Below are positions 12,888-35,877 of a stretch of DNA of 64,000 bases, piece by piece. Positions within the stretch are counted from its first letter, which is position 1. Every line of letters starts with the position of its first letter. Source of the DNA: an uncultured Bacillota bacterium (GTDB taxonomy: Bacteria; Bacillota; DTU025; MWDF01); NCBI GenBank assembly GCA_963823655.1, contig CAWGMK010000010.1:96001-160000 (forward strand), in the 5' to 3' direction. The notes beneath the pieces were generated by a model that had not been told where the DNA came from, did not search any database, and saw only the letters and a list, made by a program, of their open reading frames with translations. A program made the position numbers and the translations under genes.

Positions 12888-13498
12888 GCGTTGACGATGG
12901 CGGCGCCGGCCACGGTGGAGGTGGGTGCGACGCGCGTCGCGAAGCCATCCACCTCGACGGCGGCATCGCCCACGGCGCCGCCGTTGTCGATGGCCACGTC
13001 CACGAGCTCGTGGAGCCCGGCGGCCCCGGGTCCCGCGCCGAGCCGGACGACGCGTGGCGCAGGCTGGTGATGGCGATGGTCCGCACCCCGGCCTCGCTCG
13101 CCGCGCGCGCCATCTCGCGGCTGACCGCGTTGCTGCCCGAGTTGGACGCGATGAGCAGCACATCACCGGGCGCCATGGCGTGGTCCGCGGCCAGCGCAGC
13201 GGCGAGCCCGGGCAGCCGCTCCAGGGCCGTGCTGAGCGCCGTGCTCCCGTGAAGCGTCAGGCCCTCGAACAGGATGGCCGGACCCGGACCAGGCCGCCGG
13301 CGCGGTGGAACAGCTCCTCCCGCGATGATGGCGAGTGCCCGAACCGAAGCTGTGGATGGTCCCGCCGGCGGCGAGCGCATCGGCCATCAGCGAAGCCGCC
13401 GCGTCAATTCGCGGCCACTCCTCGGTGCCGAGGCGGGCGACGAGCTCCTCCGCGATCCGGAGGTAGCGCTGGCCGGCGGACGCACGCTCGCTCGTCAT
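12888..13498 (-). pseudogene. SIS (sugar isomerase) domain protein, frameshifted and C-terminally truncated
   Basis: IHSFGSG, SNSGSNAVSREMA, IAITS, AIDNGGAVGDA, STVAGAAIVNA; runs into the opposite-strand gene. Confidence 0.8.
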
Positions 13499-16400: not shown

Positions 16401-19400
16401 CGCTTGGGTTGATGGCAACGCGGATGGCAACGCAGACCCCGGAGAGCTCATCAACTATACATTCATAGTCACGAACCTCGGGAATGTGACGCTTCATAAT
16501 GTGACAGTCACAGATCCTAAGATTGTAGAAGTGGGCGGGCCTACGACCCTGGATGTTGGCGAGGCAGACAATCGCCACATTCACAGGTTCGTATGCGATA
16601 ACCCAGGCGGACATCGACGCCGGCTTCGTATACAATATCGCAACAGCTGACTCCACTGAGTCGCCTGCTGCTACGGCGAGAAGACCGTCACGCTGCCTCA
16701 GTACCCAAGGCTTTCAATAGTGAAGAATGGCGCTTGGGCTGACGGCAACGCTGACGGCAATGCGGACCCCGGTGAGTTAATCAATTACACCTTCACAGTA
16801 ACGAACATAGGAAACGTGACGCTTCACAATGTAACAGTCACAGATCCTAAGATCGTTGAAGTGGGCGGGCCTACGACCTTGGATGTCGGCGAGGCAGACT
16901 CTAGCACATTTACCGGTTCATATGCGATAACCCAGGCAGACATCGACGCAGGCTTCGTATACAATATCGCAACAGCTGACTCGACTGAGTCGCCTGCCGC
17001 CAATGGCGAGAAGTACGTCACACTGCCGCAGTACCCGCTGCTTTCTATAGTGAAGGACGGAGCTTGGGTTGATGGCAACGCAGACGGCAATGCAGACCCA
17101 GGAGAACTTATTAATTACACCTTCGTAGTAACGAATGAGGGGAATGTGACACTTCACAATGTGAGAGTCACAGATGCAAAAATTGTGGAAGTGGGAGGGC
17201 CTATCACTCTGGATGTCGGCGAGTCTGACTCGAGCACATTCACCGGTTCGTATTCGATAACCCAGGCGGACATAGACGCGGGCATGGTATTTAACAGGGC
17301 AACAGCTGATTTGGACGAGTCGCATTCCACAAATAGCGAGATTACAATCCCGTTGCCGCAGTACCCGCACATGAGCATTAACAAGACCGCACTTGAGACA
17401 TCAGTCAGCACGCCTGGTTTGATCCACTACAATGTGGTTCTTACAAATGACGGCAATATCACCCTAAATGGAATTACGCTTGCCGATACCCTAGTTGCTA
17501 ATCCCGGGGCGAAAGTTGAATTGCAGACGGCCAACGATCAGCTAAACGTTGGCGAGACGTGGACCTGGACATATACATACTTTGTCAATCAGGCCGCAAT
17601 CAACCTGGGGGACAGCATAGTAAACACGGCGACGGCCAGCTACTATTTCCAGCAGCTGGAGCCCGTTAGCGACAGCGTAACGGTAAGCATAATCCAAAAC
17701 CCCGCATGGAGCCTTGATAAGACCGTGCTGGAGACCGAAATAAGCTCTCCGGGTGATTTGCATTACACAGTAGTGCTAAGTAACGACGGGAATGTCGACC
17801 TTACCGGTATAGTCCTGGTGGATACGCTGGTCGCAAATCCAGGAGCACCCGTAGAATTGCTATCAAGCAACGGCATCTTGAATGTAGGGGAGACATGGAC
17901 CTGGTCCTATACCTATTACGTAGACCAGGCGGCTATAAACCTCGGACAGTCTATCACCAACGGGGCAAGCGCAACATGTGCACAGTTGCAAACGCTTCCC
18001 GCAGGGGATGAGATTGCAGTGACCATTCTGCAAAACCCCGCATGGAGCATCGATAAGACGGCATCCGAGGAAACGGTGGGCGCACCAGGCGATTTGCACT
18101 ACACGGTCGTTCTAAGCAACGACGGAAATATCGACCTGACGGGGATAACCCTGGTTGACACATTGGTGCCTGATCCGGGCCTGCCTGTAGAATCGCTTTC
18201 AAGCAACGGCATCCTGAATGTGGGCGAGACGTGGACCTGGAGCTACATTTACACCGTAGGCTGGGATGCTCTCTACCTCGGTGACGATGTAGAAAACACA
18301 GCGACCGCAAACAGCGACCAGCTGGAAGGCTATCCTGTCTCAAGCGGGTTCTCCGTGGTAGTAATCCAGGATCCGAACTGGCAGCCGGGACTTGAGATCA
18401 CAAAAGAAGCAACCCCCGGCTCCGCAGCAGTGGGCGACATAGTCACATACCGGGTCAGCATCTTTAACGACAGCGAATTGCCCTCACCTATGACTGCTTA
18501 CGATGTAGTCCTGGTAGACGACCTGCCAGACGGCTTCAGTTATATTGCAGGCACATCACACCTGGATGGGGTGCTTATCGCCGACCCGATAGTGTCGGGT
18601 TCAGAGGTATCGTGGCCCATAGGGGACATAGAGATGGAAGAGGGCCACGTACTGACCTATAAAGTTGGAATAGGCGCTGGAGCGCTCAATGGGGATGGCA
18701 TCAACTACGTAACCGCAATCGGTATTGGCGAAGCCAGCTTCCCGTTCGAGATAGGTCCCGCCTCAGCTCAAGTAATAATAACCGGACCCGCGTTCTCATC
18801 GCATGGGGCCATCTTAGGCAAGGTGTTCCATGATAAGGATGCGGACGGTATGCAGGACAAGGACGAACCGGGCATTGCAAACGCCGAAGTGATCATGGAC
18901 GATGGCATGAGCGCTCGCACCGATGAAGAGGGCCAGTACCATATCGGCCAGGTTAAGCCCGGAGTGCGTTCCATTAAGCTCAATCTGGGATCCCTGCCGG
19001 CAGGGTCGACGCTCACAAACAGCTTCAAGGATGTAACGGGCATATCGGCATCGTTCTTCGTAGATGTGCTGCCATCAGGAGTGGCAAGGGCCGACTTCGC
19101 AGTAGGCATGCCCAGTCAGGCGAAGGAGCCTGTAGGAAGGCCGGGTGGCTCAGAGCCGCTAATCATAACAGGGACAATCGAGCTTACCCACAACGTGAGC
19201 GGTTTCGACGGCTCCTATATAAGGGCCAGGGCGTTCCTGATGAAGAGGTTCGAGGGAGGCTCCCTGGTGCTTAGGTACGATATGCAGCAGGGCATTGCGG
19301 ACGGATTGTATTCGGACGCGTCGGATGATCCGATGTACAGCCTGTACGGCGATGGCTCGGGCACAACGAACCTCGCCCCGTCATCAAGCCCGTTCTATGC

Positions 19401-21444
19401 GAAGCTTGATTCGAAGTACTTCGACATCGCATGGAGCGACTTCCAGCCCGCGTTCGAGTCGGTCGAGCTGGCAAGCTTCATGACCAAGATGACGGGAGGC
19501 CAGGCTTCAATAAAAGTAGGAGGCTTCTCGCTAGAAGGCTTCGTAGCCCCCACAAGGGCAGGCATGCAGACCGACAGGATAGCAGGAAACGGCACCTCGG
19601 GATACTTCTTCCTGGATGACTACCCTGTAGTAACGGGCAGCGAGACAATCTACGTAATCCGTACGAGGTTCTACGATGAAAGCATAATACTCGACAGGAA
19701 GCTTCTCATTCGCAACCTGGACTACAAGATCGATTACTCGACAGGCTCCATACTGCTCACAGACGCCATGCCGTCATACGATGAGGAGGGCAACAAGTAC
19801 TTCCTCGAAGTGACATACTCGATTACGGGCGGCGATTACGACGGGCTTGCGGCAGGCATCAGGGCGCATGCGGACTTTGGGGCCTTCGACCTTGGGGCGA
19901 CTACCGCGATAAGCAACAAGAGCGGTGGAGTCAGTACGGTAGTAGGGGCGGATATGGGCCTCGACTTCGGCGAGGCGTTCACCTTCGACGCAGAAGGCGC
20001 AGTATCCTTCGCCTCAGGGATATATGGAGGATATGCCGTAAAGGCAGGCGCCGCATCCAGGATAGGCAAGGTCGAACTGAGAGTAGAAGCAGGAGCGAGC
20101 GACGGAGGCTTCGTAAAGCCGGGTGAGACGGCCACAATGCCAAGGCAGATCACTCTGTACGGCTCGGCCGGAATTGATCCTGCTGAAGCGCTCATACTGT
20201 CGCTTACCAGCAATAATGCCTGGAAGGGTCTGGACTACAGCTTCAGCAGCGAAAACAAGCTGACAGCTGGATACAAGCTGCCTTTGAAGTTCGGCGTGGC
20301 GCTAGGCATGATCACCTCATTCACCTATACAGAGACGCCTGACACGAAGGGTGCGATATTCGACGCATTCGCTGAGATAACACCAATTCCTCAGCTGGTC
20401 ATCAAGGCATTTGCGCAGATAGCCAAGGTCGGGGAGCCCATCGACACTGACGGAGACTACAGCCTGTCGATCTCATACAAACCCGATTCGAAGCTTGCAG
20501 TGACCCTGGCTTATTTGACCGGCGTAAATGGTGTCGAGAGATATCATACGATCTCACTTGCCGCAGACCTTGCAGTAACTGAGAAGGGCCGCATCTACGG
20601 CAGACTTAGCCTGCCGTTCGGCTCCAGGGCTGCCAACGTCCTGAGCCTGGGCTACAACGACTCCTATCAGCTAATAAAAGGGCTTGTAGCAACGTTCTCG
20701 ATGGAAGGCTCGCTCAGCCTTGGCGGACCCGAGATCATAGTGCCAGACTCAGCGAAGGTTGCAGCCTCCGCATCCTTGGAGTATGTCGCCAAGTCCGGCT
20801 TCAGGGCATACCTCAAGCAGGAGATAACCTACGGCAGCGCAGGGCTGACATCGTTGACATTGCTCAATCTGAACGGCAAGGCTACGAATTGGCTGAGCAT
20901 AGAAGGAAGCGCTGCGGCATACTACGGCAACTCGCCAACCAGGGAGGGGCTGCCGCTTACCGCGGAAGCAGGGCTGTCGCTTGCGATAAGGCCCGAGAAC
21001 ACGGTCATAACGGGCCTGTTCAAGGCAAACACCAAGTACTTCGCAGGCGAGGTGTTCGAGGAACCCGTGATGGCCCTGGTTACGACAGCGACTACAGACT
21101 GGACCCTCGAAGCCGGAAGATACCTGTCGGTTACTGCGAAGGCGGGCTACAAGCTGGCAGCGGAGGGTGCGATCGGTGAATCGTTGGCGCTAAATCACAT
21201 CATATTGCTGCAATCCGGAGCTTCGCTGCACATAACAAGGACGACTGATGTGGAAGCCTTCATAAGGACGATCGGATGGACCGGCAACTGGAAGCTGGGC
21301 TACAGCGTCCAGGTTGTACAGAAGATATTCAACCTGTTCAGTGTCGCGATAGGATACAATTCACAGGATCTGTCCGACACCGATATAGTAGATCAGAAAC
21401 CTTGGTCCGAAGGGTTCTACATCAAGGCCATGTTCAAGTTCTAG
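13499..21444 (+). CDS. Giant DUF11/DUF7507-repeat surface protein with SdrD-B-like domain and predicted C-terminal outer-membrane beta-barrel; 5' end missing, frameshifts in the repeats
   Basis: ORFs 13274-15328 (from 13499), 15231-16352, 16390-16650 and 16720-21444 carry the same repeats; ILGKVFHDKDADGMQDKDEPGI; C-terminal ~760 aa of amphipathic strands ending GFYIKAMFKF. Confidence 0.85.
13735..17370 (+). repeat. 11 tandem 330-bp (110-aa) repeats with synonymous divergence
   Basis: K[ND]GxW starts at ~13751, 14081, 14411, 14741, 15071, 15402, 15732, 16062, 16393, 16723, 17053. Confidence 0.92.
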
Positions 21445-21872: not shown

Positions 21873-23689
21873 TTGAAGGTTGCTGGCAATAAGGCGCTGT
21901 TGATCATTTCCATTGTCGCTGTCCTAACAATCTTTGCGGCCCCTGCATCTGCGGCGTGGCCTCTCCAGGCGGAATGGATACCAGCTCTCGGTCCTAATTG
22001 GACCAATATAACGGACCCCTCCGACCAGCAGTCGGCGTACCTGGACTGCGTGGTTGATACGATGCAGCCTTTAAGCAGGCAAGCGGCGTCTTATTGGTTT
22101 TTCGACGGGATCTATATGTACTTCCGGATGATACTGGACGGAGATCCGCTCAGGTATCAGGGCATCACAGCCGCTGGAATGAAGCCCTTCGGGTGGGCGG
22201 TCCTTATAGAGAGCACAGGCGATATGTATCCTGATTATGCCATAGGGATCAACGGAACCGGATCTTCCGATACCATAAGTTCAATGTACAATATCACTCA
22301 GGACTTCACCATGGACGGGGCGACAGGCTGGACGCAGTCTGCCACAACCCCGGTTTTAAACGGTGGCTTCTGGTATCTTCTGAACGGCATGGTCAGAAGC
22401 GGAGTATCCGGCGGGAACACAAACGGCACCCCCGATTATTACTTGGACATCATGGTTCCCCTGACATGGCTGTCAAGGATGGCCAATACCACGCCTCCTG
22501 CTGCTGTTACATCGAGCACTCCCATAAAAATTGCCTTTGGAACGGATGCCAGCGGACAGAATATCGGCAAGGACCTAGTCGGCCAGTCAAGCCTAATAGA
22601 TATTGGCAGCTATTTCACTAGCGTCGCCTCCCGTGACTCCTGGCGGAGGATACGGGCTGCTTTACGATGGAAGGCACACAAGTACGGCAAACCACGGCAT
22701 TTGGTACAGAGGCGAAATGCTTACCGTATCAGGTTCCGGCTGGCCGGTTTCGACACAAATACCCCCATATACAGGCTATATTCAGGTCAGAATCGTAGGG
22801 CCTACCGGCATACAATACGATATCCCATCGCCTGGAGTGCCTACTACGACCGGTGGAGTAGTCATCCCTTCAGGGCATATGGACCATACCGTCCACTGCA
22901 CCTGCCGGGGTCTATTCAATCTATGTGATGCAGCCAAACAGCACCGTCTATATGTTGAAGGACACCTTTACTGTTGAAGTGGTGACCATTGACCTTTCTT
23001 CCAGCACCAAATCGGTCTCGCCTGCTTCAGGCGTGGCGTCTGACCAGCTTACATACACTATAGTGGTAACAAATACCGGAAGCAGCACGGCGACGGGCGT
23101 AGTGCTTACTGACGCCATACCGGCCTTAACTTCATATGTAGCGAATTCATCCACGATGAATGGCTCACCGCTTACTGATGTGGGAGGGGCTAGCCCGTTC
23201 ATAGGAGGCTATACGGTTTCGCCATTGGCTCCCAATGCATCTGCAACATTTACGTTCAGGGTGACCATAAGCCCGAGCGCCCCTGATCAGACGGTGATTA
23301 CCAACACAGCAAGCATTCGATGGAACAGCATGACGATTACAAAGACTGCGACAGCGCTCGTGAATGCGCCGCTGATGACGATAACAAAGAGCGTGAATCC
23401 GACGACGGGTGTGTTGCCGGGCGCAGTGCTTACTTACTCTGTCACATTCACCAATGTAGGGCACTCCAACGCCACAGCTATTGAGGTCATCGATAGCATC
23501 CCTTCGGATACGACATACGTACCCGGCAGCTACACTTCCAGCGCAGGAGGGACTTTCACGTTCCAACACGCTCTGGCAGGTGCTTTCGACGCTTCTGATA
23601 CATTGCCGGTCACTGCGATCAAGTATTCTATTACCCCCCTTGTGCCGGGGGCGTCGGTCACTTTCACTTTCCAGGTCACAGTAAAATAA
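21873..23689 (+). CDS. Secreted protein: unique N-terminal domain, one complete DUF11, one C-terminal incomplete DUF11 (putative tip adhesin); frameshifted
   Basis: GGAGG RBS, TTG start, signal peptide ..APASA; ORFs 21873-22928, 22603-22977, 22925-23689; ends TFTFQVTVK*. Confidence 0.8.
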
Positions 23690-23706
23690 CATCCTGATTT
23701 CTGGAG

Positions 23707-24828
23707 TTGATGCAATTGTTCGGGAAAAGTTCCGGTCTTAGAATATTTGTCTCAATGCTGTCATTTATTTGCCTGTTGGCCGCAGCATCGGGCGCTTCTC
23801 AGACTATGCCTGTGAAAGGCTTGTACCTGGGAACTTTCAATGTGCTTGAGGGCTGGGATGGTTTCGGCATCCTGTCCGCTGAGGAGCCTATCGCTAAGGC
23901 GTCCAAGAACATGCCAATTATGCAAATCCTGGATGCCGCAGGGAAGCTTGTTGAAACGGCACAATGGGACGGGAGCGGTCCAAAAGTGTCCGCTGACGGA
24001 AATGAGTGGACCATGAACCTGACCGCAAACATTGGCTTCAAGAAGCATTCTTTCGAGTTGAAGAGCTCATGGACAGACAAGACTAAGCTTAGTGCGGGAT
24101 TGATAAAGCTAACGGTTACGACGCTGGGAGAGCCGGCTGATGCGGCGAAATACTCGTACGTGCTGAGATTCCCGGGCTCAGGTTCGTGGGTATCAAAGGA
24201 TGGAAAAGCCGCGGCAGTAGCGTCTATTGAAGGCTTTAAGGACAACCTTGCTGCCTACATCGCCATTGCTCCGGCAGACAATTCATGCACATTCAAATCG
24301 AAGCAGATGTCAAAGAGCGATTCCGGCAAAGTCGACAGGAAGCTCTTCTACATTGAGGCATCATCCTCTCCCGCAAAACAGGGTGAGACGCCAAATCCAT
24401 TGATCATGGGCATCTATATGACGAGGGTAATGGCCTGGTCTTACGAGCCGGTCTTGGACCTTTCTTCTGCCATAAGCTCGGGAAAAGCCGAGCCAGATGT
24501 GAGGATATTCGGCACCGTGGACAAGCAGACTGCAAGTCCGGGGGAGAGCCTTAACTATACGTATTTCCTTCTTAACGCCGGAATGGATGAGGCGACGGAT
24601 TTAAGCGTCACCATCCCAATATCAGAGAAAACGGGGTTGATTATCAGCTCGATTTCCGGCAGCCCCGGCATAGCCAAGCTTCAGCCATCGGGAAAAGAAG
24701 TCGAAGTCGTACAGAATGGCCAGTTATCAGGCGAACCAGATATGGGCATCAAGTCTATCCAGTGGAGCCCCAAGGGGAATCTCCGCCCAGGGGAGACTAT
24801 CAGTATTTCATTCAGCATAGCAATTTAG
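23707..24828 (+). CDS. Secreted protein with C-terminal incomplete, degenerate DUF11 domain
   Basis: Signal peptide; VDKQTASPGESLNYTYFLLNAG..IQW..LRPGETISISFSIAI*. Confidence 0.8.
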   Translation: MMQLFGKSSGLRIFVSMLSFICLLAAASGASQTMPVKGLYLGTFNVLEGWDGFGILSAEEPIAKASKNMPIMQILDAAGKLVETAQWDGSGPKVSADGNEWTMNLTANIGFKKHSFELKSSWTDKTKLSAGLIKLTVTTLGEPADAAKYSYVLRFPGSGSWVSKDGKAAAVASIEGFKDNLAAYIAIAPADNSCTFKSKQMSKSDSGKVDRKLFYIEASSSPAKQGETPNPLIMGIYMTRVMAWSYEPVLDLSSAISSGKAEPDVRIFGTVDKQTASPGESLNYTYFLLNAGMDEATDLSVTIPISEKTGLIISSISGSPGIAKLQPSGKEVEVVQNGQLSGEPDMGIKSIQWSPKGNLRPGETISISFSIAI

Positions 24829-24849
24829 TCAATTAAGGGAGGTAATGTT

Positions 24850-26622
24850 TTGAAGACAACACTTACTAAGGCATTGGCCGTTGCACTATTGATAGTAGCA
24901 ATGGCGGCTGTTTCGGTCACCGCGACCGGAACGCTTGCTGGAACGCTGATTAATAACAGCGCAACGGTAAATTACAAGGACGTGAACAATAACTCAAAGA
25001 CTGCTGTAACTTCGAATACGGTTACTACAACTGTAAATCCTGTTTGCGGCGTTGATGTTGACCCCTGACGCCGGTCACGCGGAAACCGTAGAGGATAAAA
25101 TCAGGGAATATGCATTCATTATAACCAACACAGGCAATGACTACGACTCATTCAGTCTGGCGCTTTCAGGAGTGCCTGCCGGATGGACTGCCGTCATATA
25201 TCACGATGCGAATGGTGACGGCGTTCTTGATCCAGGCTGAAACGACGTAACCAGCAGCACCGGAACGCTTGGATCCGACCTCCCCGACAATCATCGGGCA
25301 TACAAGGGTTGATCATTACGATGTGATCGTCCAGGTCACTGCGCCTGCGGCACCTACCGTCGTGAACCAGACGGCCAATATCACACTGACCGCGACTTGC
25401 ACCCATGCACCCTGCGCACCCGAGCCCGAAGACAGATACTTCCACAATAGCAATGACTGTTCAGACAGGCAATAATGTCGGTGACTAAGACATGCTGAGC
25501 AATTCCAACCCGATGCCCCTTGAGCCGTTCGACTACTACAATAACAGTTTCAAACTCGGGCCTTGTACAGGCATATGATGTTGTTGTAACAGACACCCTT
25601 TCAGGCAACCTTCCTATATAGGTCCCGTATGGTATGACGCGGACGGCACTGGATCTGTATCTTCGGAAGTCAGGTTGCCCGGCGCCTATTCGGCAGGCGT
25701 AATCACAGTAACATTCCCAGCCTTGGGGCAGGCGTCAACGCAACAATCAGCTTCGAGGTCCAGGTAACGGCCGAAGATCCCGTATGACAACGCAGATAGT
25801 AAACTCGGCGAATGTGGCATATGACGATGCTGACGTTAACGATTATCACTTCACAGTAACTGACGATGTGACAATAACCGTCGCCAACCGCGCCGGAGTG
25901 GACATCGAAGCCAATTACACAGCAGTATACCGACCCTGGTGACGTTCTGATGGTTCCTTTCACCATTCAGAACACCGGTAACGGTCCTGACGTGATGGAG
26001 ATAACAACATCGCAAGTCGGCGCGCTTTCATTGACATGGACGATCTACTTTGATGCCGATGCAAGCGGAACATATATCCACCGGCGACACGCTAGTCGTA
26101 AATACCAATGCGTCAGGTGGAATTGATACAGGATCAATGATCAAGGATCAGATAAATCAGGTATGTCGCAGTAGCAACTGTGCCAGCAGGAGCAGTTGAC
26201 GCTTCAGTCGATGCATTGACTATAACTGCAACGACAACGACGGCACCGATAACTCATGATGCAATAACAATCACACATACTGTGAAGGCGCCGATACTGA
26301 CGATAACCAAGGCTGTTGACAAAGCTACGGCAAATCCTGGCGAAACACTGACCTACACGATAACAGTCACGAATATCGGTACAGGTAACGCGACGGGTGT
26401 AGTGATCACGGACGACATCAATGCAATCCTGGACTATGTGACTATGTCCCTGGTTCCATAAAAGTGGACGCAGTCGCTCAGTCGGATGCCGACGATGATC
26501 CTGGACTACTCCTCATACACACAGCCGGCGTGGTTACGGTAAATATACCCACAATTGACGGCACGCTTACTCCTACTCCGAATGTAGACTATGTGATAAC
26601 GTTCCAAGTCACCGTAAAGTAA
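24850..26622 (+). CDS. Secreted DUF11 protein, putative major pilin; heavily frameshifted in this assembly
   Basis: AAGGGAGG RBS; signal peptide; mature start TGTLAGTLINNSATVNY; last domain ILTITKAVDKATANPGETLTYTITVTNIG..VITDD; read directly at 26581-26622: NVDYVITFQVTVK*. Confidence 0.8.
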
Positions 26623-26663
26623 CTTGGGCAATCTGCGCTGCTAAAACCTGTAAGTATGGGACG

Positions 26664-26687
26664 GCCTCCGGCGATAGTGCCGGAGGC
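26664..26687 (+). promoter_or_regulatory. Intergenic GC-rich hairpin without U-tract
   Basis: gcctccggc-gatagt-gccggaggc. Confidence 0.6.
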
Positions 26688-26711
26688 GCGGCCCAACAGG
26701 AGGCTCTATAG

Positions 26712-29700
26712 ATGAACCGTGGCCGTATCTTGACCTATATATCGATTATCCTGCTGGTGCTCCTCATACAGCCTGTTTCGGCAAGGCCTCCTGTTGAGAT
26801 GCCCACAAGGGCGGGGACCGCAATCACCAACCAGGCTAAAGTGGAGTACAACAACCTTGGAGGGGAGGCCTTCCAGGCATCAAGCAACATAGTGATGACC
26901 ATCGTATCCGTAGTCCCCGGCGTGGATATTACTGATGGGTCCCATGTGGCATCTGCCCCTGGTAACGTAGTCATATTCCATCACATGCTCACTAATACGG
27001 GAAACGCGCCTGAAGCGATCAACATAGACGTGGCTAACGCCGCAGGTTTTTTATTCGAAATATTCCACGACTCCGACCTGGACATGGCTTTGACATCATC
27101 GGACGCCCCGTTTTCTGACACCAACGGGGACGCCCTTCCAGATACAGGGATAGTCGACCTCGGTACTTCGGTGTCGATGTTCCTGAAGGTCACGATACCC
27201 TCAAACGCACCGCTTACCATCGAAGCCCTTTTTGGAATAACGGCATCCAGCAGCCTTGACAGCTCCGTTTCGGACTATGCAGAGGATCTAATCTCGGTGG
27301 ACGAGGCCAGACCCTTCATCGATGTTTACAACAGCCCGCAATATGCCTATTTGGGCACAGAGTACAAGTTTGACATAGCCTTCGGCAACACCGGCGACAT
27401 TGCGTTCACATCGGCAACGCTAGTTACAACAATTCCGGACGGGCTCGAATTCGTATCCACCAATAGCGGATACGCATACGATGTAGCCGGAAAGACCATT
27501 ACCTGGTTCTTGGGTGACATCGAACCGGGAGCATCCGGCAGCTTTAGCGTTACTGTGAGGGTAATCTCAGCCGGCCCGGGAATAACATACGTGAAAAATG
27601 AAGCGACTTTAGGCGGAGGTAGCGGTACCAGCCTTTATGACTTCGAGAATACAGGATTGGTCACCACGGCTCCGGCTACGATTGTCCTTGTCGCAAATCC
27701 GGACGTGATAGTAGGAGACGGAATCTCACAATCACTTCTGACAGCAACCGTTCTAGATGCGATAGGAAATCCAGTACCGGACGGAACGCCTGTGGCATTC
27801 GGCACTGAGGCAGGGACATTCCTGCCCAACGGGCTCGCCTCATTTACTGGCATTACGACCGGCGGCATAGCCCAGGTGATACTTGTGGCGCCGCTAATCC
27901 ACGGTTTCGAACCTGTCTCCAATCTTGTGGAAGTGGAAGCGGGCACGCCTGAGACCGGGGAAGCATACGATACCGTGACGATCACATTCTCGCCTGCGGG
28001 AATACTGGGCATCGTCTGGAACTCTAATCTGAACCAGCCTGTACCGGATATCCTTGTGGAACTTCTCGACGGCGATGGCATAGTCATATACTCGACCATT
28101 ACCGGCTCCGACGGAAGGTACATGCTGATAGCCCCCGCAATCGGGCAATACATGGTACGAGTGCACACAAATGAACCTGAAGGCCGCGGCCTTATTGAAA
28201 TGGCAGTGGACGTGCAGGAGGTTCAAGGCGCGATATGGAGCACACCATGCGCGATATTGGGCAGCGCCTTCGTTGATATCGCGGACTTGGCGCTGGCATC
28301 ATCGCTTCAACCACTGGCTGGCGCAGTAATTGGCTTATACAAGGATGGAGCCCTTATTGGCCAGGCAGTTGCTGACGAGTTCGGCGAGTTCGAATTCCTG
28401 AATCTGCCGCTGGGCGATTATGTGCTCAAGGCAATGACACCTTCTGGAAATACTGGTTTCAGCGGCGCATCCCTCGTCTACAACGGTGAAGTCCTTATCG
28501 CAGAATATATCGAGCTGTACGAAGCGGGCAAAGTATATGATGCAGCTAACCTGGCGCCCATCCCGGGTGCCGAGGTGACGCTCCTTTACGCAACAGGCCC
28601 GATGGCAGGCACCCCTGTGCCGCTTCCTGCGACACCTTCTCTGCTGCCGCAGGACAATCCTGCATATACTGACCTGCTAGGCCACTATATATTCTTCACC
28701 GAACAGGGAGAGTACATCCTCAAAGCAACCGCTTTCGGCTATGAGGACTTCCTATCCGGACCGTTCACTCTGGCGGGTCCTGTCGTAAATGCCTGGATAC
28801 CCATGCAGCTCATAACGTCTTCTTCATTGGGAATTAAGAAGCTGTCGAGCAGGTCGGCGGCGTCTCCAAGCGAATCGGTGAAGTTCACATTGAGCTGGAG
28901 CAACACATCGGGCGCCCCGCTTTCAGGAGTGCAGATGGTGGACAAGCTTCCTGTGGAGTTGACAGTGCAGGAGGACACCATCACCGGCGGCGGCATCTAT
29001 GATCCGATTGAGCACACGATTACCTGGTACTACGGCAACATCAACGCTTCTGCGGAGCTTCGAACCGAAGCCTATTTCGCCACCGTGGCAGAGGGCGTCG
29101 ATGACGGGACAGAGCTATTGAACAGAGTCGAGGTATTCTCTGAGGATGGAGCCAAGGCCGCCTCTTCAGTGCTTGTCCTAATTGCCAGGAAGCCCGGTAT
29201 AGAAGTATCCAAAGAGGCCGGATCAACAAGAGTCAGCACGGGCGACATAGTAACCTACAGGGTTGATGTTCACAATAGCGACGAAGTGCCTGCCCCCATG
29301 ACAGCATTCGATGTTGTGGTAGAGGACGTCCTTCCTGCAGGATTCTCTTACATACAAGGTTCAACTTATCTGGACGGGGTCCATGCGGCTGATCCTTCCA
29401 TCACAGGTTCGACGCTTTGCTGGGCATTGGGCGACATTTTAGTGGGCGAATCCCGCTCCATTGTCTATAAGGCTGGAGTCGGTCCCGGCGCAATCTTAGG
29501 CTCAGACAGCGTAAACTCGGCCATGGTTTTCGGGACGGGAGAGAACGGCTATCCATTTGAAGCGGGTCCTGCATCGGCAAGCGTGCTTGTAACCGGACCT
29601 GCATTCTCCTCGCTTGGCTCGATTATCGGCAAAGTGTTCAATGACAAGGATGAGGACGGCTACCAGGACAAGGATGAGCAAGGCATTGACGGCGCCGAGC

Positions 29701-32700
29701 TAATTATGGATGACGGCATGAGGGTATTGACCGACAAGGATGGCCTGTATCATATAGGCCAAGTCAAGCCGGGTGTGCGCTCGATAAAGCTGAACAAGTC
29801 CTCCTTACCTTTCAAGGGAGAAATGACCAACAGCTTCAAGGATGCGACGGGGATCTCGTCATCGTTCTTCGTCGATGTGTATCCATCCGGAATCTCCAGG
29901 GCTGATTTTGCCGTAAAGAATATCAATACCACGGCTTCGCACAGCTTGAAGATGAGCATAGATGCAGGCGGTATGGTGCCCGTCAGTGAAGGCAAATCCA
30001 CCGTCTTGGTAAAGATAAACTATGTTAACGACGGAAACGCAAAGATGGACAACGCGCTGATATCTTTGGCCGCAGTTTCCGGAGATGAATTCGCGAAGGT
30101 GTCCGTTATGGGAGCTGAAGATGCGAAGGTAAAGGATCTCTTGCCGGGGCAGTCGGGAGAGGCAAGCTTCTTCGTATCGGTAACAGGCATAAGCCAGGAT
30201 TACTCCAGCCTGTTGATTGGAGCCGCGGCATACATACCGGGAACAGACGGCGACGCATCTAGCCCTCCTGGATAGGGCGAGCGATGTGGCAGTCCTCTAT
30301 GTGAAGGGCCCTGCTGCCTCGACGGCAGGCTTCTCCATAGAAGTACCCGGTCCGGTGTCCCTCGCCCAAATCGGTCACATCTCCATCAAGACCGTTTCCC
30401 CGCTTGCCACAAATACAAAACTAATGGTCAATGGGGCCGTAGTTTCGAAGGATAGTGTAGGCTCCACTACGAGGGACGGCATACAGGACAAGCTGATACT
30501 TGAATACATAAGCGTTGAGATCAGCACCGGTATCAATGTCATTGAGCTGGTAAATGAGGTAAATGGACGGACCGTGGCTAACGGCCGTAGTGCTCAAAGC
30601 AGGCCAAGCAGATAAATTGATCCTGGCCCACATTCCGACGGGGGAAGGCCTGAATATCGGCTCAAAGATCGCAGCATCAGCCCTTGCAGTGGACAAAGCG
30701 GGTCTTCCTGCAGGAAGGTTCGCTGGGGCGTCCTTTACAGCCTCAGGTGCAGAGTTCATAGGCACGGATGCAAAGCCTCAGGACGATGGCTTCCAGCCGG
30801 GCGCCGGGGAGTTGGGCAACTATGACCTTCTGATGTCCGTAACTGACTCAGATACCAATCTGGCCCTTACAGGCATGATCGGTGACAACAGCACCGAAGC
30901 TGACCTTTCAAGTATCAGGCCTCTTTCCAAGGCGGCCTTCGTTTCCGGCACGATTAGAGCTAACCCACAACTTGAGCGATTTCCAAAGCTCATACATCAA
31001 GGCAAGGGCATTCCTGCGCAAAGAGTTCGCAGGCGGCGTGCTCACACTTAGATACGACTCCGAGCAGGGAACGGTGGACGGCCTTTACTCTGACGCGGCA
31101 GAAGATACCATGTACAGCCTATATGGCGACTCATCGTCAATAAGCAACGCGAGCCCGTCGGCAAGCCCGTTCTATGCGAGATTCTCGGCAAGCGGCATCT
31201 ACGCCATGTGGGGCGATTTCCAGCCTCTATACCAGGGGGCGGAGCTGTCGAGCTTCAAATCGAAGTTCACAGGCCTTTCTGCCGGGGTGAGCATCAAGGG
31301 CTTCAGCCTTGGAGCATTCGTCGCACCTTTGAAGGACGGCATCAGCACCGAGCGCATAGAAGCTGACGGGACATCAGGATATTTCTTCCTCGATGGCTAC
31401 CCGCTGCTCGCGGGCAGCGAGGCAGTATATGCGATATTGGTAAGCCCTGATGAGGAGGGCATAGTCCTCGAAAGGATAACTTTCAAACGGGCAATCGACT
31501 ATACGATAGATTACGAAACGGGATCCATACTGTTATCCAAACCGTTGCCTTCAACCGACTCCTTGGGAAACAAGTATTTCCTGGAGGTAGTGTATACGAC
31601 GCCCGGAACCGGTATCACCGGCCTTGTGGCCGGCGGCAGGCTACATGCAGACTTCGGAGCCGCCGACGCAGGAATCACTGCGGCTATCCAGAGCGATTTC
31701 ATAAGCTCGGATGCGGTAGTCGGAGCCGACTTCGGACTTGACCTGGGCCAGGCATTTAGGCTCAAAGCAGAAGCCGGCGCATCTTTCTCCGATGGGGTTT
31801 ACGGCGGATATGCGGTTAAAGCGGGGGCAACTTCGAAGATCGGCGTTATTTCGCTGGCTCTGGAAGCATTGGCCACCGACGGCGGGTTCAAAAAGCCAGG
31901 TGAAAGCATCGCCATGAACAGGCAAGTAGGTCTGGTCGGCAAGGCTGAGGTGGACAAAACCAGTCCGATAATCCTGTCGCTGACTTCGGCCAACTACTGG
32001 AAGGGCGCAGCATACGATTTCTCGAGCGACAATAAGCTGAAAGCAGGCTACAGGCTGCCTCTGAAGTTTGACATAGCATTAGGCCTTCAGACATCGTTCA
32101 CATATGATGGCCTTACTGACACCAAGGGTGCCATCTTCGATGCATTCGTTGAGCTTGCTCCGATACCTGAGCTGACTATTGCCGCATACGCCCAGATAGC
32201 CAGGATTGGTTCCCCCAAGGACAGCGACGGGGACTACAGCCTGGCGATTACCTACAAGCCGAACTCGAAGATAGGTATCAGCTTGTCTTATTCAACCGGC
32301 CTGAATGTACAAGACAGGTACCACACTATAGCCCTCTCGGCTGATGTAGCAGTTACGAAGATGGGGAAGGTGTTCGGGAAGGTTAACGTGCCGTTGGCGA
32401 CAGGCTCTGCTAAGGTTCTAAGCCTCGGATACCAGGATGGTTACAAATTATGCGAAGGATTGCAGACGAATTTCCTGATTGAAGGCGCAATCGGCTTCAA
32501 GGGGACGGGCATAGAGCAAAGCGCTACGAAGGTATCGGCGGCCGGCGCGCTGGAATACGCCGCCAAGTCGGGGTTCAAAGCCTACCTCAAACAGGAAGTG
32601 GCATTCCATGCGGCTGAGGGTTTCAAGTCGCTTACAATGCTCACCCTGAGCGGAAAACCTGCGGACTGGCTCAGCGTAGAGGCTACGGCGGCTGGCTATT

Positions 32701-33221
32701 ACGGCAATTCCCCAAGCAGGGAAGGGCTGCCCCTTACAGCGGAGGCGAGCCTGTCGTTGGCTGCCCGTCCTGAAAACACCATATATACCGGGCTGCTGAA
32801 AATAGGAGCAGAATATTTCAGAGGAGAGCACCTTGGAGTGGATGAAGCGGCGGTAGTCGCAACTGCGGTAACGGATTGGACCCTGGAGGCCGGCAAATTC
32901 CTTTCGCTCTTGGCGAAGGTAGGTTACAAGCTTGCTGCCGAGGGCCCGATAGGCGAGGATCTTTCATTGAACAACATCCTGCTTCTGCAGGGCGGCTCCT
33001 CGCTCCACATAACAAAAACAACCGATATCGAGGGCTTTGTAAGGGCGATAGGCTGGGCAGACAACTGGAAGTTCGGTTACAGCGTGCAGATCGTGCAGAA
33101 GTTATTCAACCTTTTCAGCGTGGCGGCAGGTTACAACTCCAGAGACCTTGCCGATACAGACATAGCTGATCAGAAACCTTGGAACGAGGGATTCTACCTC
33201 AAGGCCCTTATTAAGTTCTAA
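26712..33221 (+). CDS. Giant secreted multi-Ig protein (DUF11, Big_1/invasin-like, carboxypeptidase-regulatory-like, SdrD-B-like) with predicted C-terminal beta-barrel; frameshifted ~30.2-31.0 kb
   Basis: AGGAGG RBS; signal peptide; AGTAITNQAKVEY; GDGISQSLLTATVLDAIGNPVPDGTPVAF (Big_1-like); C-terminal part paralogous to 18.4-21.4 kb; ends GFYLKALIKF. Confidence 0.85.
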
Positions 33222-33369: not shown

Positions 33370-33603
33370 ATGGGAGCTTTCAGACTCAGAAAAGGCCAGA
33401 CTGCCAGGATATGTAGCATCGATGTTGAGCACAGGTCTGCTCCCCATCTAATAGAAATGGGATTTACCCCGGGGTCTTCTTTTGAAGTAATAGGGGCATC
33501 GCCCTTTGGCGATCCTCTAATGCTAAGGCTGAGAGGATATTCCGTAGCCGTAAGGATGAGGGACCTGGCCGCCTTGACAGTGGAAGGCATAGCGGAGGCT
33601 TAG
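33370..33603 (+). CDS. feoA: Ferrous iron transport protein A
   Basis: LIEMGFTPG..SPFGDPLMLRLRGYSVAVR. Confidence 0.92.
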   Translation: MGAFRLRKGQTARICSIDVEHRSAPHLIEMGFTPGSSFEVIGASPFGDPLMLRLRGYSVAVRMRDLAALTVEGIAEA

Positions 33604-35430
33604 ATGAAAGAGGCAAACATGGGCTTAAGAGTCGTTCTCGCCGGCAATCCGAACAGCGGGAAGACAACTTTGTTTAACGCCCTAACTGGCAGTAATCAGC
33701 AGGTAGGAAACTGGCCCGGTGTTACTGTGGAAAAGAAAGAAGGAGCTTACTCCTTTTCCGGGTCGGACTACAGCGTGATCGACCTCCCGGGCACATACTC
33801 CCTCGAACCGGGCACCCCGGAGCAAAGGCTGGCGGGGGAATACCTATCCGGCGGGGGAATTGACCTGATCATAAATACCGTGGATGCCGGCAACCTCTCC
33901 AGGAGCATGTTCCTTACGCTTCAGCTGATGAACAAAGGTATTCCCATGCTCATCGCGGTCAACTTCATGGATGAGGCCGAGAAGACCGGTCTGAAAATAG
34001 ACTTAGCCAAGCTTGAAAGCCGGCTGGGCGTAAAAGTAGTACCCATCTCAGCATTAAAAGGGGATGGCATATCGGAGCTTAGGAGCGCGGCTGCCGAGGC
34101 AATCAAGTCAGGCGTGGCCCCCAAGCCTATTTTCGCATGCTCAAAGGGATGCTCCGGCTGCAGCGCCGCAATCGAAGGGTTTTCATGCATAGACTCAATG
34201 TTCGCCGACTGCGTATCGGCCGCCGAGCCCAAAGGGGCGCTTGCGCTCTTCGACAGGGTTGCGCTTAATAGGTGGCTCGCAATACCTGTTTTCGCCGCGA
34301 TAATGGCGGGGGTATTCACCCTTACCTTCGGCCCTGTTGTAGGCAAGGCTTCGGATCTGATCGACTGGATAGTGAATGTTAAGGCCATTGAGCTGGCAAA
34401 AGCAGCGCTTGCATCGATAGCGGCGCCCAACTGGCTTATCGGTCTGGTAGCGGACGGCGCAATCGGCGGGGCCGGATCTGTGCTGATCTTCCTTCCGCAA
34501 ATAGCCATGCTTTTCTTCCTGCTGTCCCTGCTTGAGGGCACCGGCTACATGGCAAGGGCCGCTTTCGTGATGGACCGCGCCCTGTCATGGCTGGGCTTAA
34601 GCGGAAAAAGCTTCGTTACACTGCTGATGGGCTTCGGATGTACGGTTCCTTCCATAATGGCATCGCGAATCCTTGAGGATGAGGCTGAAAGGAAGCTGTC
34701 CGTCGTGGTTGCACCTTTCATATCTTGCAGCGCGCGCATGCCGATATATGTCCTTATCGCAGGCGCGTTCTTCGGTTCGAAGGCCGGCCTTGCCGCAGCT
34801 TCGATGTATCTTCTGGGGATACTTGTGATGGTGCTCTCGGCCCTGCTTCTAAGCAAAACCGTCTTCAGGAGCCGCTCGGCGGGCTCTTTCGTGCTTGAGA
34901 TACCACCTTACCGCATGCCTCGCCTAAGATATCTCGCGATGTCGACCTGGCACAAGACCAAGGACTTCATTGTAAGGGCGGGCACTTTGATCGTGCTGGT
35001 GTCGGTCGGCATTTGGATTATGGGCAACCTTAGCTTCTCCCTTAAAGTCGTGGCAGATCCTTCGCAAAGCATGTTGGCTACGCTAGGAAGGTTCATCGTG
35101 CCTGTCCTAAGGCCTCTGGGCCTTGGGGACTGGAGGATTGGTGTGGCCCTTCTTTCAGGTGTTGCCGCCAAGGAGATCGTAGCCTCGACCATAACCCAGT
35201 TGGCGGGATCCGGCAGGGAGGCGATGATGTCGATGGGCCTTACTGCGGCTTCTGCGCTATCGTTTATGGCCTTCTCATTGTTGTATGTGCCTTGCGCAGC
35301 TACAATAGTGGTAATGAAAAGAGAGCTCGGAGGCGCCAGGCAGGCGGCGCTGGCCGTTGCCTACGGAATAGCGGTCGCATGGACGGTGTCATTCATAATC
35401 TACAGGATAGGGACCCTGATCCTGGGCTAG
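33604..35430 (+). CDS. feoB: Ferrous iron transporter B (short form)
   Basis: GNPNSGKTT, VGNWPGVTVE, DLPGTYSL, GYMARAAF, GFGCTVP, SCSARMP, AKEIV, LYVPCAAT. Confidence 0.95.
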   Translation: MKEANMGLRVVLAGNPNSGKTTLFNALTGSNQQVGNWPGVTVEKKEGAYSFSGSDYSVIDLPGTYSLEPGTPEQRLAGEYLSGGGIDLIINTVDAGNLSRSMFLTLQLMNKGIPMLIAVNFMDEAEKTGLKIDLAKLESRLGVKVVPISALKGDGISELRSAAAEAIKSGVAPKPIFACSKGCSGCSAAIEGFSCIDSMFADCVSAAEPKGALALFDRVALNRWLAIPVFAAIMAGVFTLTFGPVVGKASDLIDWIVNVKAIELAKAALASIAAPNWLIGLVADGAIGGAGSVLIFLPQIAMLFFLLSLLEGTGYMARAAFVMDRALSWLGLSGKSFVTLLMGFGCTVPSIMASRILEDEAERKLSVVVAPFISCSARMPIYVLIAGAFFGSKAGLAAASMYLLGILVMVLSALLLSKTVFRSRSAGSFVLEIPPYRMPRLRYLAMSTWHKTKDFIVRAGTLIVLVSVGIWIMGNLSFSLKVVADPSQSMLATLGRFIVPVLRPLGLGDWRIGVALLSGVAAKEIVASTITQLAGSGREAMMSMGLTAASALSFMAFSLLYVPCAATIVVMKRELGGARQAALAVAYGIAVAWTVSFIIYRIGTLILG

Positions 35431-35439
35431 GAGGATAAC

Positions 35440-35877
35440 ATGCAAGAGGAACTGCGCACAGGTTCAGAAAGGCACTCGGAGCACAGGAAGCTCGTACTTG
35501 AGTGCATAACTTCTGCAGGAGGCAGGCATCTTACTGCGGAGCAGGTCTTCGAAGAGGTGAAAGGCGTCCACCCGGGGATAGGGATCGCCACCGTGTACAG
35601 AAATCTGAAGCACCTGGAAGAGTCCGGCTCCATTGTTAAATCCATAGTCAGCGAGAGCGGCGCCTCAGTATACGAGGTGGCGGGTCCCGAGGGCTCCCAT
35701 TCGCACCATCATCTGATATGCCTTTCGTGCGGCAAAGTCGAGGACCTGGGAACTGACCTTTTAGACGCCATAGAAAAGCACGTTGAGGACAAGAACGGTT
35801 TCAAGGTCAAGGACCACCGCCTTCAGATCTTCGGCGTATGCAAGTCTTGCTTCGAGGAAAAATCCCGGGGCTGCTGA
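35440..35877 (+). CDS. fur: Fur-family transcriptional regulator
   Basis: HLTAEQV, IGIATVYRNL, HHHLICLSCG, GVCKSC. Confidence 0.9.
   Translation: MQEELRTGSERHSEHRKLVLECITSAGGRHLTAEQVFEEVKGVHPGIGIATVYRNLKHLEESGSIVKSIVSESGASVYEVAGPEGSHSHHHLICLSCGKVEDLGTDLLDAIEKHVEDKNGFKVKDHRLQIFGVCKSCFEEKSRGC

Follow-up and report, generated by a model that had tools for sequence, protein, structure and literature searches.

What might be built by four adjoining genes, three of which stop partway through a domain and two of which open with what looks like its missing part? They lie on the + strand of the window (the whole 64,000-nucleotide stretch analyzed here, from an uncultured Bacillota bacterium) and encode a putative tip protein (21873-23689), a 373-aa protein (23707-24828), a putative pilin (24850-26622), and a putative base protein (26712-33221). 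The reading favored here, with a probability of about 0.7, is that together they form a self-assembling, covalently locked surface fiber of a two-membrane bacterium, based on a naturally split CnaA-type domain.

Gene Cluster and Domain Layout

The tip protein begins with a signal peptide and a ~350-aa N-terminal domain matching no known family, followed by a complete DUF11/CLIPPER domain with a TVITNTASIRW strand (22979-23371) and a last domain (23372-23686) ending after the F.V.V strand, the frame terminating ...TFTFQVTVK with its stop at 23689; it is an acceptor without a donor. The secreted 373-aa protein, whose gene (23707-24828, +) is intact, has a last domain (~24499-24825) truncated at the same point (...ISFSIAI, stop ending at 24828). 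The pilin is both donor and acceptor: a donor hairpin (24910-25038) directly follows its signal peptide (mature N-terminus TGTLAGTLINNSATVNY...TSNTVTTTV), and a truncated acceptor domain (26297-26619) terminates ...VITFQVTVK at 26619, followed by the stop codon (26620-26622). In the base protein a signal peptide and donor hairpin (~26799-26909; mature N-terminus RAGTAITNQAKVEY...SSNIVMTIV) precede a stalk and a C-terminal barrel domain. Inspected by eye, the signal peptides show no lipobox, the mark of lipoprotein precursors such as those from which the type V pili of Bacteroidia form by protease-triggered strand exchange. An initial annotation had described three consecutive genes stopping right after the F.V.V strand, N-terminal hairpins in the pilin and base proteins, and a complete DUF11 domain with its final hairpin in the tip protein; all three features were verified where they had been placed.

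Against Pfam DUF11 (PF01345, cut-off 24.6 bits), the C-terminal part of the tip protein scores 85.2 bits and the base protein 107.5, with the 373-aa protein below the cut-off at 20.6. The tip protein also matches TIGR04226 (positions 4-105 of 123).

Frameshifts in the Window Copy

Within 11 kb, the window copy contains 18 frameshifts and one stop, confirming that the reading frames need repair, as had been anticipated: two frameshifts in the tip gene (~22626, ~22864), 13 in the pilin gene (which also has the in-frame stop, at 25238, and in which the frameshift at ~26438 divides the acceptor domain), and three in the base gene (~30261, ~30583, ~30956). Every frameshift is an extra base, and for five of the 13 in the pilin there are contigs from other runs without exactly those bases. 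Because all are extra bases, missing from the related contigs that cover the sites, the frameshifts are probably assembly errors; if real, they would mean a nonfunctional system in this strain. Could the cluster then consist of decayed pseudogenes, or be an assembly artifact, with no function in this organism? The density of lesions and the apparently chimeric state of the contig 8 kb upstream would fit, but the idea is scarcely credible: besides the extra-base pattern and the clean sites in other contigs, the translated frames of the pilin are still 73.5% identical to their closest intact homolog (P0006, 587 aa), both the 373-aa gene and another pilin locus, on contig C6, are intact, and a broken window copy leaves the family-wide pattern untouched.

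A Domain Divided Between Proteins

That pattern was evaluated with a profile of 150 positions made from the complete internal DUF11/CLIPPER domain of 47 pilin homologs; its source is the same pilins that were tested, though their internal domain alone. In all 47, the C-terminal domain corresponds to positions 2-111, the match ending at the last residue, and the mature N-terminus to positions 112-150. Tip proteins (8/8) end at position 110/111 and have no donor; base proteins (7/7) begin with positions 113-147 and have no truncated domain, their internal domains reaching positions 122-139. The truncation point and the N-terminal hairpin are kept in homologs, as are the roles that had been proposed from the window alone: acceptor only for tips, both for pilins, donor only for bases. 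The terminal domains, stopping at 110/111 of 150, do not qualify as complete DUF11 domains within one polypeptide.

The window proteins behave in the same way, with the last domain of the tip matching positions 3-111 (iE 6e-20), the pilin N-terminus 108-149 (iE 1.4e-9), the pilin C-terminal pieces 4-50 and 50-111, the base N-terminus 112-141 (iE 3.9e-6), and the last domain of the 373-aa protein 4-109. Across the whole genome the profile matches 18 of the 17,040 stop-to-stop ORFs that are 60 aa or longer, and donor- or acceptor-like matches occur only at this locus and at the small second locus on contig C6. Judged from these alignments, the complementarity is beyond chance.

It might still be asked whether the N-terminal motif directs sorting or secretion, or caps the protein's own open domain, with the truncated domains being stable seven-strand variants and no link forming between subunits. 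The motif lies right behind the signal peptide, a common place for sorting motifs, and a “closed,” self-capped state of TafA has been modeled, according to the portion of the tafi paper that was available (PMC11821415). This remains improbable: the motif aligns to exactly the missing part (112-150), with an invariant isopeptide Asn, and the pilin hairpin leads directly into domain 1, the open domain lying three domains further along. Tips lack the hairpin and bases lack the open domain, and self-capping therefore cannot satisfy either.

The Isopeptide Triad

The Lys, Asp, and Asn of the DUF11/CLIPPER triad are present, divided between chains. The proposed isopeptide Lys and catalytic Asp of the tip protein are Lys155 (23387-23389) and Asp190 (23492-23494) of its truncated domain, at profile positions 8 and 42, and are invariant in 8/8 tip proteins from three phyla. 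The pilin acceptor has its Lys at 26309-26311 and Asp at 26411-26413; the donor residues are Asn36 of the pilin (24955-24957) and Asn40 of the base (26829-26831). Among homologs, all 47 pilins and 53/54 bases have the donor Asn, 48/49 pilins have the acceptor Asp, and 46/49 have the acceptor Lys (44 by alignment, plus P0040 and P0053 by eye), with Glu in its place in two (P0009 and P0014). In the unsplit internal domain, by comparison, the triad is intact in just 32/47 and wholly or mostly gone in 15/47. The residue placement predicted in the initial annotation, with Lys and Asp on one subunit and Asn on the next, is therefore kept more strictly where the domain is split than where it is whole; a triad strict at the junction and dispensable within a chain amounts to a natural experiment on the purpose of isopeptide bonds. 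The profile matches PDB 3kpt (E 1.2e-5) across the Asp and Asn motifs and PDB 9ifr (E 7.3e-4) across the Lys and Asp motifs, the 9ifr Asp position as counted here being one residue off the published numbering.

Complementation in trans could in principle be non-covalent, with Lys, Asp, and Asn serving only in packing: chaperone-usher, type V, and TasA fibers need no cross-links for their stability, Glu replaces Lys in two pilins, and the small acceptor family manages without the triad. The stricter conservation of the triad at the split argues against this, as does homology to domains with a solved bond (the 3kpt and 9ifr matches; PMC12617251, in the part of that report that was available), and a purely non-covalent fiber is considered very unlikely.

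Proposed Assembly

In the covalent fiber model, the last domains of the tip and pilin lack the final beta-hairpin, which, bearing the Asn, is at the mature N-terminus of the pilin and base. The hairpin of subunit n+1 would enter the open domain of subunit n and complete its fold, bringing the Asn of the hairpin next to the Lys and Asp of the acceptor, whereupon a spontaneous Lys-Asn isopeptide bond would lock the joint. Donor/acceptor logic would make the fiber order tip (acceptor only), repeated pilin (both), and base (donor only), with the C-terminal barrel of the base sitting in the outer membrane. Crossing of the outer membrane might be via the large barrel; this is an inference, and there is no evidence on the route taken by folded subunits. 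Sequence data establish the split, complementarity, residue conservation, gene order, and distribution; strand insertion in trans, the Lys-Asn bond, and polymer length are only inferred from them, there being no structural model.

One possibility is that the same chemistry operates without a long fiber, a single tip, perhaps along with one pilin or a few, docking covalently on the base as an extendable adhesin stalk. The base already has a stalk of ~1400 aa, there are no polymer-length data, and some genomes have loci without a base (tip and pilin, or small acceptor and pilin). Such a short assembly is nevertheless unlikely, given that a reactive donor and acceptor on the pilin in 47/47 homologs is the requirement of a repeating unit, and that the well-conserved pilin family is kept as a separate gene (~540-625 aa).

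The 373-aa protein does not fit as a fourth structural link. Its truncated domain is as had been described, but a covalent subunit role could not be upheld: in its last domain Gly takes the place of the Lys and Ile that of the Asp, and without these residues it is excluded as a covalent subunit. Its short counterparts are likewise without Lys and mostly without Asp. A gene of this type adjoins the pilin gene at 9 of the 10 pilin loci examined, the exception being the tip and pilin locus of genome G005. Its role can only be inferred: it may act as a cap or chaperone, keeping the donor hairpin reversibly bound before handover to a reactive acceptor.

The Base Barrel and Other Assembly Machinery

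The stalk of the base protein contains DUF11, Big_1/invasin-like, CarboxypepD_reg, and SdrD_B domains. Its C-terminal domain of ~750 aa (~30960-33218, ending ...GFYLKALIKF) has at least 23 amphipathic beta segments, and the C-terminal ...KF is found in all five Bacillota copies. The region has no Pfam match at E ≤ 0.01 (at E ≤ 10 there is a weak BBP2 match in one of seven members) and no PDB relative at E ≤ 1. It does not meet the definition of a recognized autotransporter or intimin barrel of type V secretion, and is far bigger than a 12-strand barrel, the size used for comparison. The barrel family comprises 4001 clusters at 50% identity; of its best 150 relatives 100 are at least 1500 aa long, and at least 54 of these begin with a donor. 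The same barrel (57% identical) ends a second protein in the window, behind many DUF7507 repeats (13520-21444, +), with frame breaks near 15300 and 16350-16660; its 5' end is cut by a GC break at ~13450-13520, which would hide a donor hairpin if there is one.

No usher (PF00577) or PapD-like chaperone (PF00345) match was found in the organism's own genome, which is 97% complete, extending to the whole genome an absence that had been noted for the window; Omp85 is present. The only sortase match (C10:88164-88526) is inside a 70% GC stretch of its contig that looks foreign. The cluster has neither of the features that define a sortase-assembled pilus, a pilus sortase and a C-terminal LPxTG-type signal: the tip, pilin, and 373-aa proteins end right after the F.V.V strand, leaving no sorting signal.

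Comparison with Known Systems

No description of this split-domain pilus system was found in the literature. The initial annotation had known of no characterized system like it; this holds for the fold and the envelope context, which alone are new here, and not for the principle, since a donor strand combined with a spontaneous inter-subunit isopeptide bond is documented in what was available of two reports. In the Sulfolobus acidocaldarius thread (Saci_0406), an N-terminal donor strand completes the next subunit and a sortase-free isopeptide bond, formed by the N-terminal amine and an Asn, links subunits n and n+2 (PMC9715654); in Clostridium perfringens BsaA, Asn is the donor, Lys the acceptor, and an acidic residue the catalyst, and oligomers are lost in mutants (PMC11580942). 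The cluster shares with both an N-terminal donor element and acceptor residues on the neighbor, in its case at the level of sequence only. Their folds differ from that of the cluster (a thread head domain and a TasA-like domain, as far as the same partial sources go), their hosts are an archaeon and a monoderm with no outer-membrane barrel anchor, and they donate one strand where the cluster would donate a hairpin. DUF11/CLIPPER itself (PDB 9IFR), a CnaA-like domain with a Lys-Asp-Asn isopeptide bond, is of the same family and has the same motifs as the cluster proteins; its triad is in one chain and its bond intramolecular, according to the available part of the source (PMC12617251), whereas the terminal domain of the cluster is cut between the F.V.V and Asn strands and its halves placed on different proteins.

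Chaperone-usher pili (Fim, Pap) have the same polarity, with a groove-only tip, a repeating subunit with both elements, and an extension-only terminator, and are likewise anchored in the outer membrane. The cluster differs in the two strands that it would donate, in a link that is presumably covalent, in a terminator fused to a barrel, and in the lack of an usher or PapD in the genome. Sortase-assembled pili (BcpA, PDB 3kpt; RrgB, TIGR04226) are covalent fibers with homologous isopeptide Ig-like domains, joined by Thr-Lys transpeptidation; the bond of the cluster would instead be autocatalytic inside the completed domain, and the cluster proteins have no sorting signal, nor does the part of the genome that is the organism's own have a sortase. 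SpyTag/SpyCatcher and isopeptag are man-made splits of isopeptide Ig-like domains that ligate spontaneously, where the split in the cluster is natural.

Distribution and Implications

The gene order was found again in five phyla. The intact module occurs in genomes of the same genus and in MAGs labeled Deltaproteobacteria, Acidobacteria, and Gemmatimonadota; the module is also in MAGs labeled Latescibacterota and, with its pilin broken into pieces, on an Acinetobacter plasmid. A broader proposal, held only tentatively and at slightly less than even odds, is that these represent a phylogenetically wide, unrecognized pilus class that two-membrane bacteria assemble without chaperone-usher or sortase systems, with split CnaA/CLIPPER polymerization, a triad-less holder, and a barrel terminator. 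Such a fiber would resemble a SpyTag/SpyCatcher chain of natural origin. It would span diderm Bacillota, Desulfobacterota, Acidobacteriota, Gemmatimonadota, Latescibacterota, and Pseudomonadota including Acinetobacter. Under this proposal the irreversible isopeptide bond would be the driving force of handover from the triad-less paralog, and the giant barrel fused to the terminator may double as an export pore.

If the covalent fiber model is correct, it would be a new route of fiber assembly in Gram-negative-type envelopes, without chaperone-usher, sortase, or type IV machinery or ATP, powered by folding and an autocatalytic amide bond. Thousands of “DUF11 domain-containing” proteins and unannotated barrels would then acquire a function (4001 clusters in the barrel family alone), and the Acinetobacter plasmid would be seen to encode a possible adhesion structure. 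Pilin donors and base donors differ systematically, so that they could be used in protein ligation as orthogonal tag/catcher pairs of natural origin. In Paenibacillus there is a two-gene version without signal peptides, which, if the broader proposal holds, would take the principle to spore formers.

Gene locus and domain content

The + strand carries four consecutive head-to-tail genes between 21873 and 33221, each product beginning with a signal peptide: a tip-like protein (21873-23689) containing DUF11, an intact 373-aa protein (23707-24828), a pilin (24850-26622) encoded between the 373-aa gene and the base gene, and a very long base protein (26712-33221), also containing DUF11. Pfam scores for DUF11 are 85.2 bits in the tip and 107.5 bits in the base (cut-off 24.6). 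The base also matches CarboxypepD_reg and SdrD_B, with weaker Big_1/invasin-like matches; no Pfam family was matched by the first 350 residues of the tip or by the C-terminal 779 residues of the base. The NCBIfam model TIGR04226, named “isopeptide-forming domain-containing fimbrial protein”, covers the last domain of the tip over model positions 4-105 of 123 only.

The reading with the most support, inferred from sequence, is hairpin complementation in trans together with a Lys-Asn bond. An N-terminal donor hairpin would complete the acceptor (last) domain of a neighboring subunit, this complementation would lead to an autocatalytic Lys-Asn bond, and the resulting order would be tip, then repeated pilin, then base, a polarity inferred from which proteins carry which half.

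A DUF11 domain divided between subunits

The division was assessed with a 150-position profile of a complete internal DUF11 domain, cut from an alignment of 47 full-length pilin homologues, themselves taken from the 53 best matches of a homologue search. All 47 pilins have a C-terminal domain that matches profile positions ~2-111, with the match ending at the last residue, and a mature N-terminus (residues ~15-85) that matches positions ~112-150 (47/47; i-Evalues 5e-5 to 1e-9). The two pieces complement each other exactly, the cut falling in the loop that joins the F.V.V strand to the Asn strand. The truncation point and the N-terminal “missing” hairpin proposed in the initial annotation are thus borne out, as is its assignment of the tip as acceptor only and the base as donor-carrying: the last domain stops at position 110/111 in all eight tips, whose internal domains extend to 131-148, and the N-terminal start of the bases corresponds to positions 113-148 in seven of seven. 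With the same profile, the window's own fragments show the same donor/acceptor matches as the homologues. Across the whole genome 18 of 17,040 ORFs match the profile, with donor- or acceptor-like matches at this locus and at one on another contig (C6) only.

Pfam finds no DUF11 in the bare N-terminal 46-50-mers even at E<=10, and only the purpose-built profile reveals the match. Two less likely explanations of this pattern need to be considered. The N-terminal motif might be a sorting or self-capping element; on the other side are the exact fit of the two pieces and the tips, which carry an acceptor only. Alternatively, the product might be a short modular adhesin instead of a long fibre, against which can be set the presence of donor and acceptor together in all 47 pilins.

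Conservation of the isopeptide residues

Crystallography (PDB 9IFR) has shown that DUF11, renamed CLIPPER, is CnaA-like and contains a Lys-Asp-Asn isopeptide bond (PMC12617251); the residue count used here for its Asp differs by one from the number in that paper. The sole query to reach solved structures was the alignment of complete family domains, which matches 9ifr across the Lys and Asp motifs (E 7.3e-4) and 3kpt across the Asp and Asn motifs (E 1.2e-5), and also reaches 3rkp, which has Ala at the position of the 3kpt Asp. 3kpt is Bacillus cereus BcpA, and 3rkp its Asp mutant. PDB sequence searches with the tip C-terminal alignment or a single sequence gave no match, and at E<=1 there was none for the tip N-domain, the 373-aa protein or the barrel.

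In profile numbering, the triad is Lys 8, Asp 42 and Asn 122. Lys and Asp had been predicted to lie in one subunit and Asn in the next, and this is how the residues are placed: at the split junction the donor Asn is kept in 47/47 pilins and in 53/54 base-family N-termini, the acceptor Asp in 48/49, and the acceptor Lys in 44/49 by alignment plus two by inspection; tips keep both Lys155 and Asp190 (8/8). The unsplit internal domain of the same pilins has the full K-D-N in 32 of 47, the other 15 having lost all or most of it. The triad can therefore be spared within the chain and is almost obligatory at the joint, a contrast that a load-bearing inter-subunit bond would predict. A less likely reading is that complementation is non-covalent; this would suit the two pilins (P0009, P0014) with Glu at the acceptor Lys position, and has to be reconciled with the near-complete retention of the triad at the other junctions.

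The pilins with this Glu (locus L015 on G005:C23; P0009 and P0014) retain Asp and the donor Asn. L015 is a tip and pilin locus without a small acceptor and without a base.

The 373-aa protein and other small acceptors

Three consecutive genes had been put forward as truncated acceptors. Truncation holds for all three, and covalent capacity fails for the 373-aa protein, in which the Lys is replaced. This protein and its relatives stop at the same truncation point, with Gly (or Glu, Ala, Ser) at the Lys position; since that position is substituted and Asp is kept in just 2 of the 18 members examined, the small acceptor is, judging by these residues, not a covalent subunit. It is inferred to cap or chaperone the donor hairpin reversibly. 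Its gene adjoins the pilin gene in 9 of 10 pilin loci examined, immediately upstream wherever coordinates were read. A non-covalent alternative tip cannot be excluded. Outside this Bacillota lineage the equivalent is a signal peptide plus a single truncated domain (156-198 aa); the 373-aa form, which has an additional N-domain, is narrowly distributed (6 clusters; 6 of 401 genomes of the phylum).

Frameshifts in the window copy

A frameshift-aware alignment of the window pilin with its closest intact homologue (P0006, 587 aa) gives 427 identities in 581 aligned residues, with 13 frameshifts and one in-frame stop at 25238. Two further frameshifts occur in the tip gene (~22626 and ~22864) and three in the base gene (~30261, ~30583 and ~30956). 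Taken at face value, these would suggest that the locus is dead in this organism, an unlikely reading. No RNA data set was among the listed carriers of the pilin stretch. All 18 frameshifts (tip, pilin and base) are caused by extra bases, and in related contigs exactly one base is absent at 25059, 25269, 25408, 25492, 25502 and 26077, accounting for 5 of the 13 pilin sites (contigs from four runs, compared at >=85% likeness; the other eight sites were unlisted or uncovered). The errors are all insertions, protein similarity persists whichever frame is read, and relatives lack these bases. Together this points to assembly error rather than decay, on the strength of related-strain contigs only and without source reads: the highest share of the stretch's sampled words in any public run was 0.13. 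In the same genome the 373-aa gene in the window is intact, as is a second small-acceptor and pilin locus on C6 (181996-184851).

Programmed frameshifting was considered and rejected: the sites are scattered, away from slippery runs, and missing in relatives.

Distribution

Of six other genomes from this genus, four have the operon intact, with ORFs of ~490-630, 370-375, 568-590 and 2160-2170 aa. In all four, the tip, 370-aa protein and pilin end right behind the F.V.V strand, and the pilin and base start with GT.AGT.I.N.A...Y.....SN.V.T.V behind an Ala-x-Ala type cleavage site. The gene order and donor/acceptor pattern on which the initial annotation was built also recur farther afield: tip, small acceptor, pilin and base genes are found together in MAGs labelled Deltaproteobacteria (L039), Acidobacteria (L103, tip gene last) and Gemmatimonadota (L054), in part on a Latescibacterota contig (L040), and on Acinetobacter haemolyticus plasmid CP085288.1 (L115, 190024-203531), where the pilin is fragmented and the module is interrupted by an OmpA-family gene. 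Pilin homologue sources include Marinimicrobia and Lentisphaerae MAGs, and their annotation is never finer than “DUF11 domain-containing protein”.

CP085288.1 is a mobilizable plasmid of a cultured gammaproteobacterium. Its locus encodes a small acceptor, a pilin as six short, apparently broken CDSs, a 2008-aa base, an OmpA-family protein and a 978-aa tip-like protein, all of them annotated as no more than DUF11 or hypothetical.

A different arrangement is seen in eight loci from Paenibacillus, Cohnella and one Bacillota MAG (L049, L052, L058, L064, L080, L093, L112, L114), in each of which a DUF11 protein of ~2250 aa ends right behind the F.V.V strand (8/8). The next gene begins at or over the stop codon, without a signal peptide, and opens ..V.NQS.V.F...YSNTV.TP.VGP, resembling the missing hairpin; the DUF11 profile matches weakly in two of the eight (iE 0.3-0.9) and not in the other six. 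With only this weak profile support, spore-forming monoderms may have a comparable split, here between two genes.

The base barrel and the cell envelope

The last ~750 residues of the base contain at least 23 amphipathic beta segments and end in ...KF in all five Bacillota copies; no matching Pfam or PDB family was found for this region. A profile search among 1.84 billion representatives returned 4001 clusters at E<=1e-3 (1935 at E<=1e-30). Among the best 150 of the 4001, 100 are >=1500 aa, at least 54 of which begin with the donor hairpin; forms of 950-1499 aa have it at their start in 0 of 32 cases. A cultured, non-pathogenic bacterium with a barrel-family match, on a plasmid, is Pacificitalea manganoxidans. 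A separate class of ~1000-1100 aa has the barrel and lacks the hairpin (0/32), and some relatives of the barrel region also have an OmpA-like (PF00691) domain; the proteins noted for these two groups are P0277-P0279, P0287, P0292 and P0293, and P0167, P0201, P0233 and others. From its size, the barrel is a candidate export pore for the subunits, which is speculation.

The organism's genome, 97% complete, has an Omp85 gene (C10:441658-442536) and no LpxC, usher or PapD match. With Omp85 present and no match for LpxC, the outer membrane may lack lipid A. Relatives carry the labels Bacillota or Clostridia MAG.

Relation to known systems

The principle of donor complementation plus an inter-subunit isopeptide is already known: the Sulfolobus thread combines donor-strand complementation with such a bond (PMC9715654), and in C. 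perfringens BsaA, Asn35, Lys74 and Glu56 act across subunits, with mutants in support (PMC11580942). Chaperone-usher pili follow the same polarity logic, with a groove only at the tip and an extension only at the terminator (PMC11821415). The initial annotation knew of no characterised system like this one, without excluding that one exists; the principle does have precedents, in contrast to a split DUF11/CLIPPER pilus, no description of which was found in the literature searched (subscription journals and supplements were outside its scope). Four features are new: the fold itself, in which one part of a split CnaA/CLIPPER domain is donated as a hairpin of two strands; the setting in a host with an outer membrane, where the terminator is fused to a barrel; an acceptor partner that lacks the triad; and the breadth of the family. 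There is a fair chance, on this sequence-based evidence, that the split-domain fibre would merit the name of a new pilus class.

Flanking sequence and contig composition

Upstream of the fibre genes, 13520-21444 encodes a second giant protein, in which roughly twelve near-identical DUF7507 (CLIPPER_2) repeats precede a C-terminal barrel of the same kind (57% identical). Its N-terminus, where a donor hairpin would mark it as a second base, is lost at a GC break, and the reading frame has breaks near 15300 and 16350-16660. At this break (13450-13520) GC falls from ~0.71 to ~0.49 within ~100 bases, inside a coding frame; GC is ~70% over the first 110 kb of contig C10 and ~54% over the remainder, and the contig probably joins DNA from two organisms. 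The only sortase match of the genome (C10:88164) lies inside that 70% GC first 110 kb and adjoins DUF11 proteins with a C-terminal membrane anchor. Directly 3' of the fibre genes (33370-35877) are feoA-like, feoB and Fur-family regulator genes, named by eye from translations and unrelated to the fibre.
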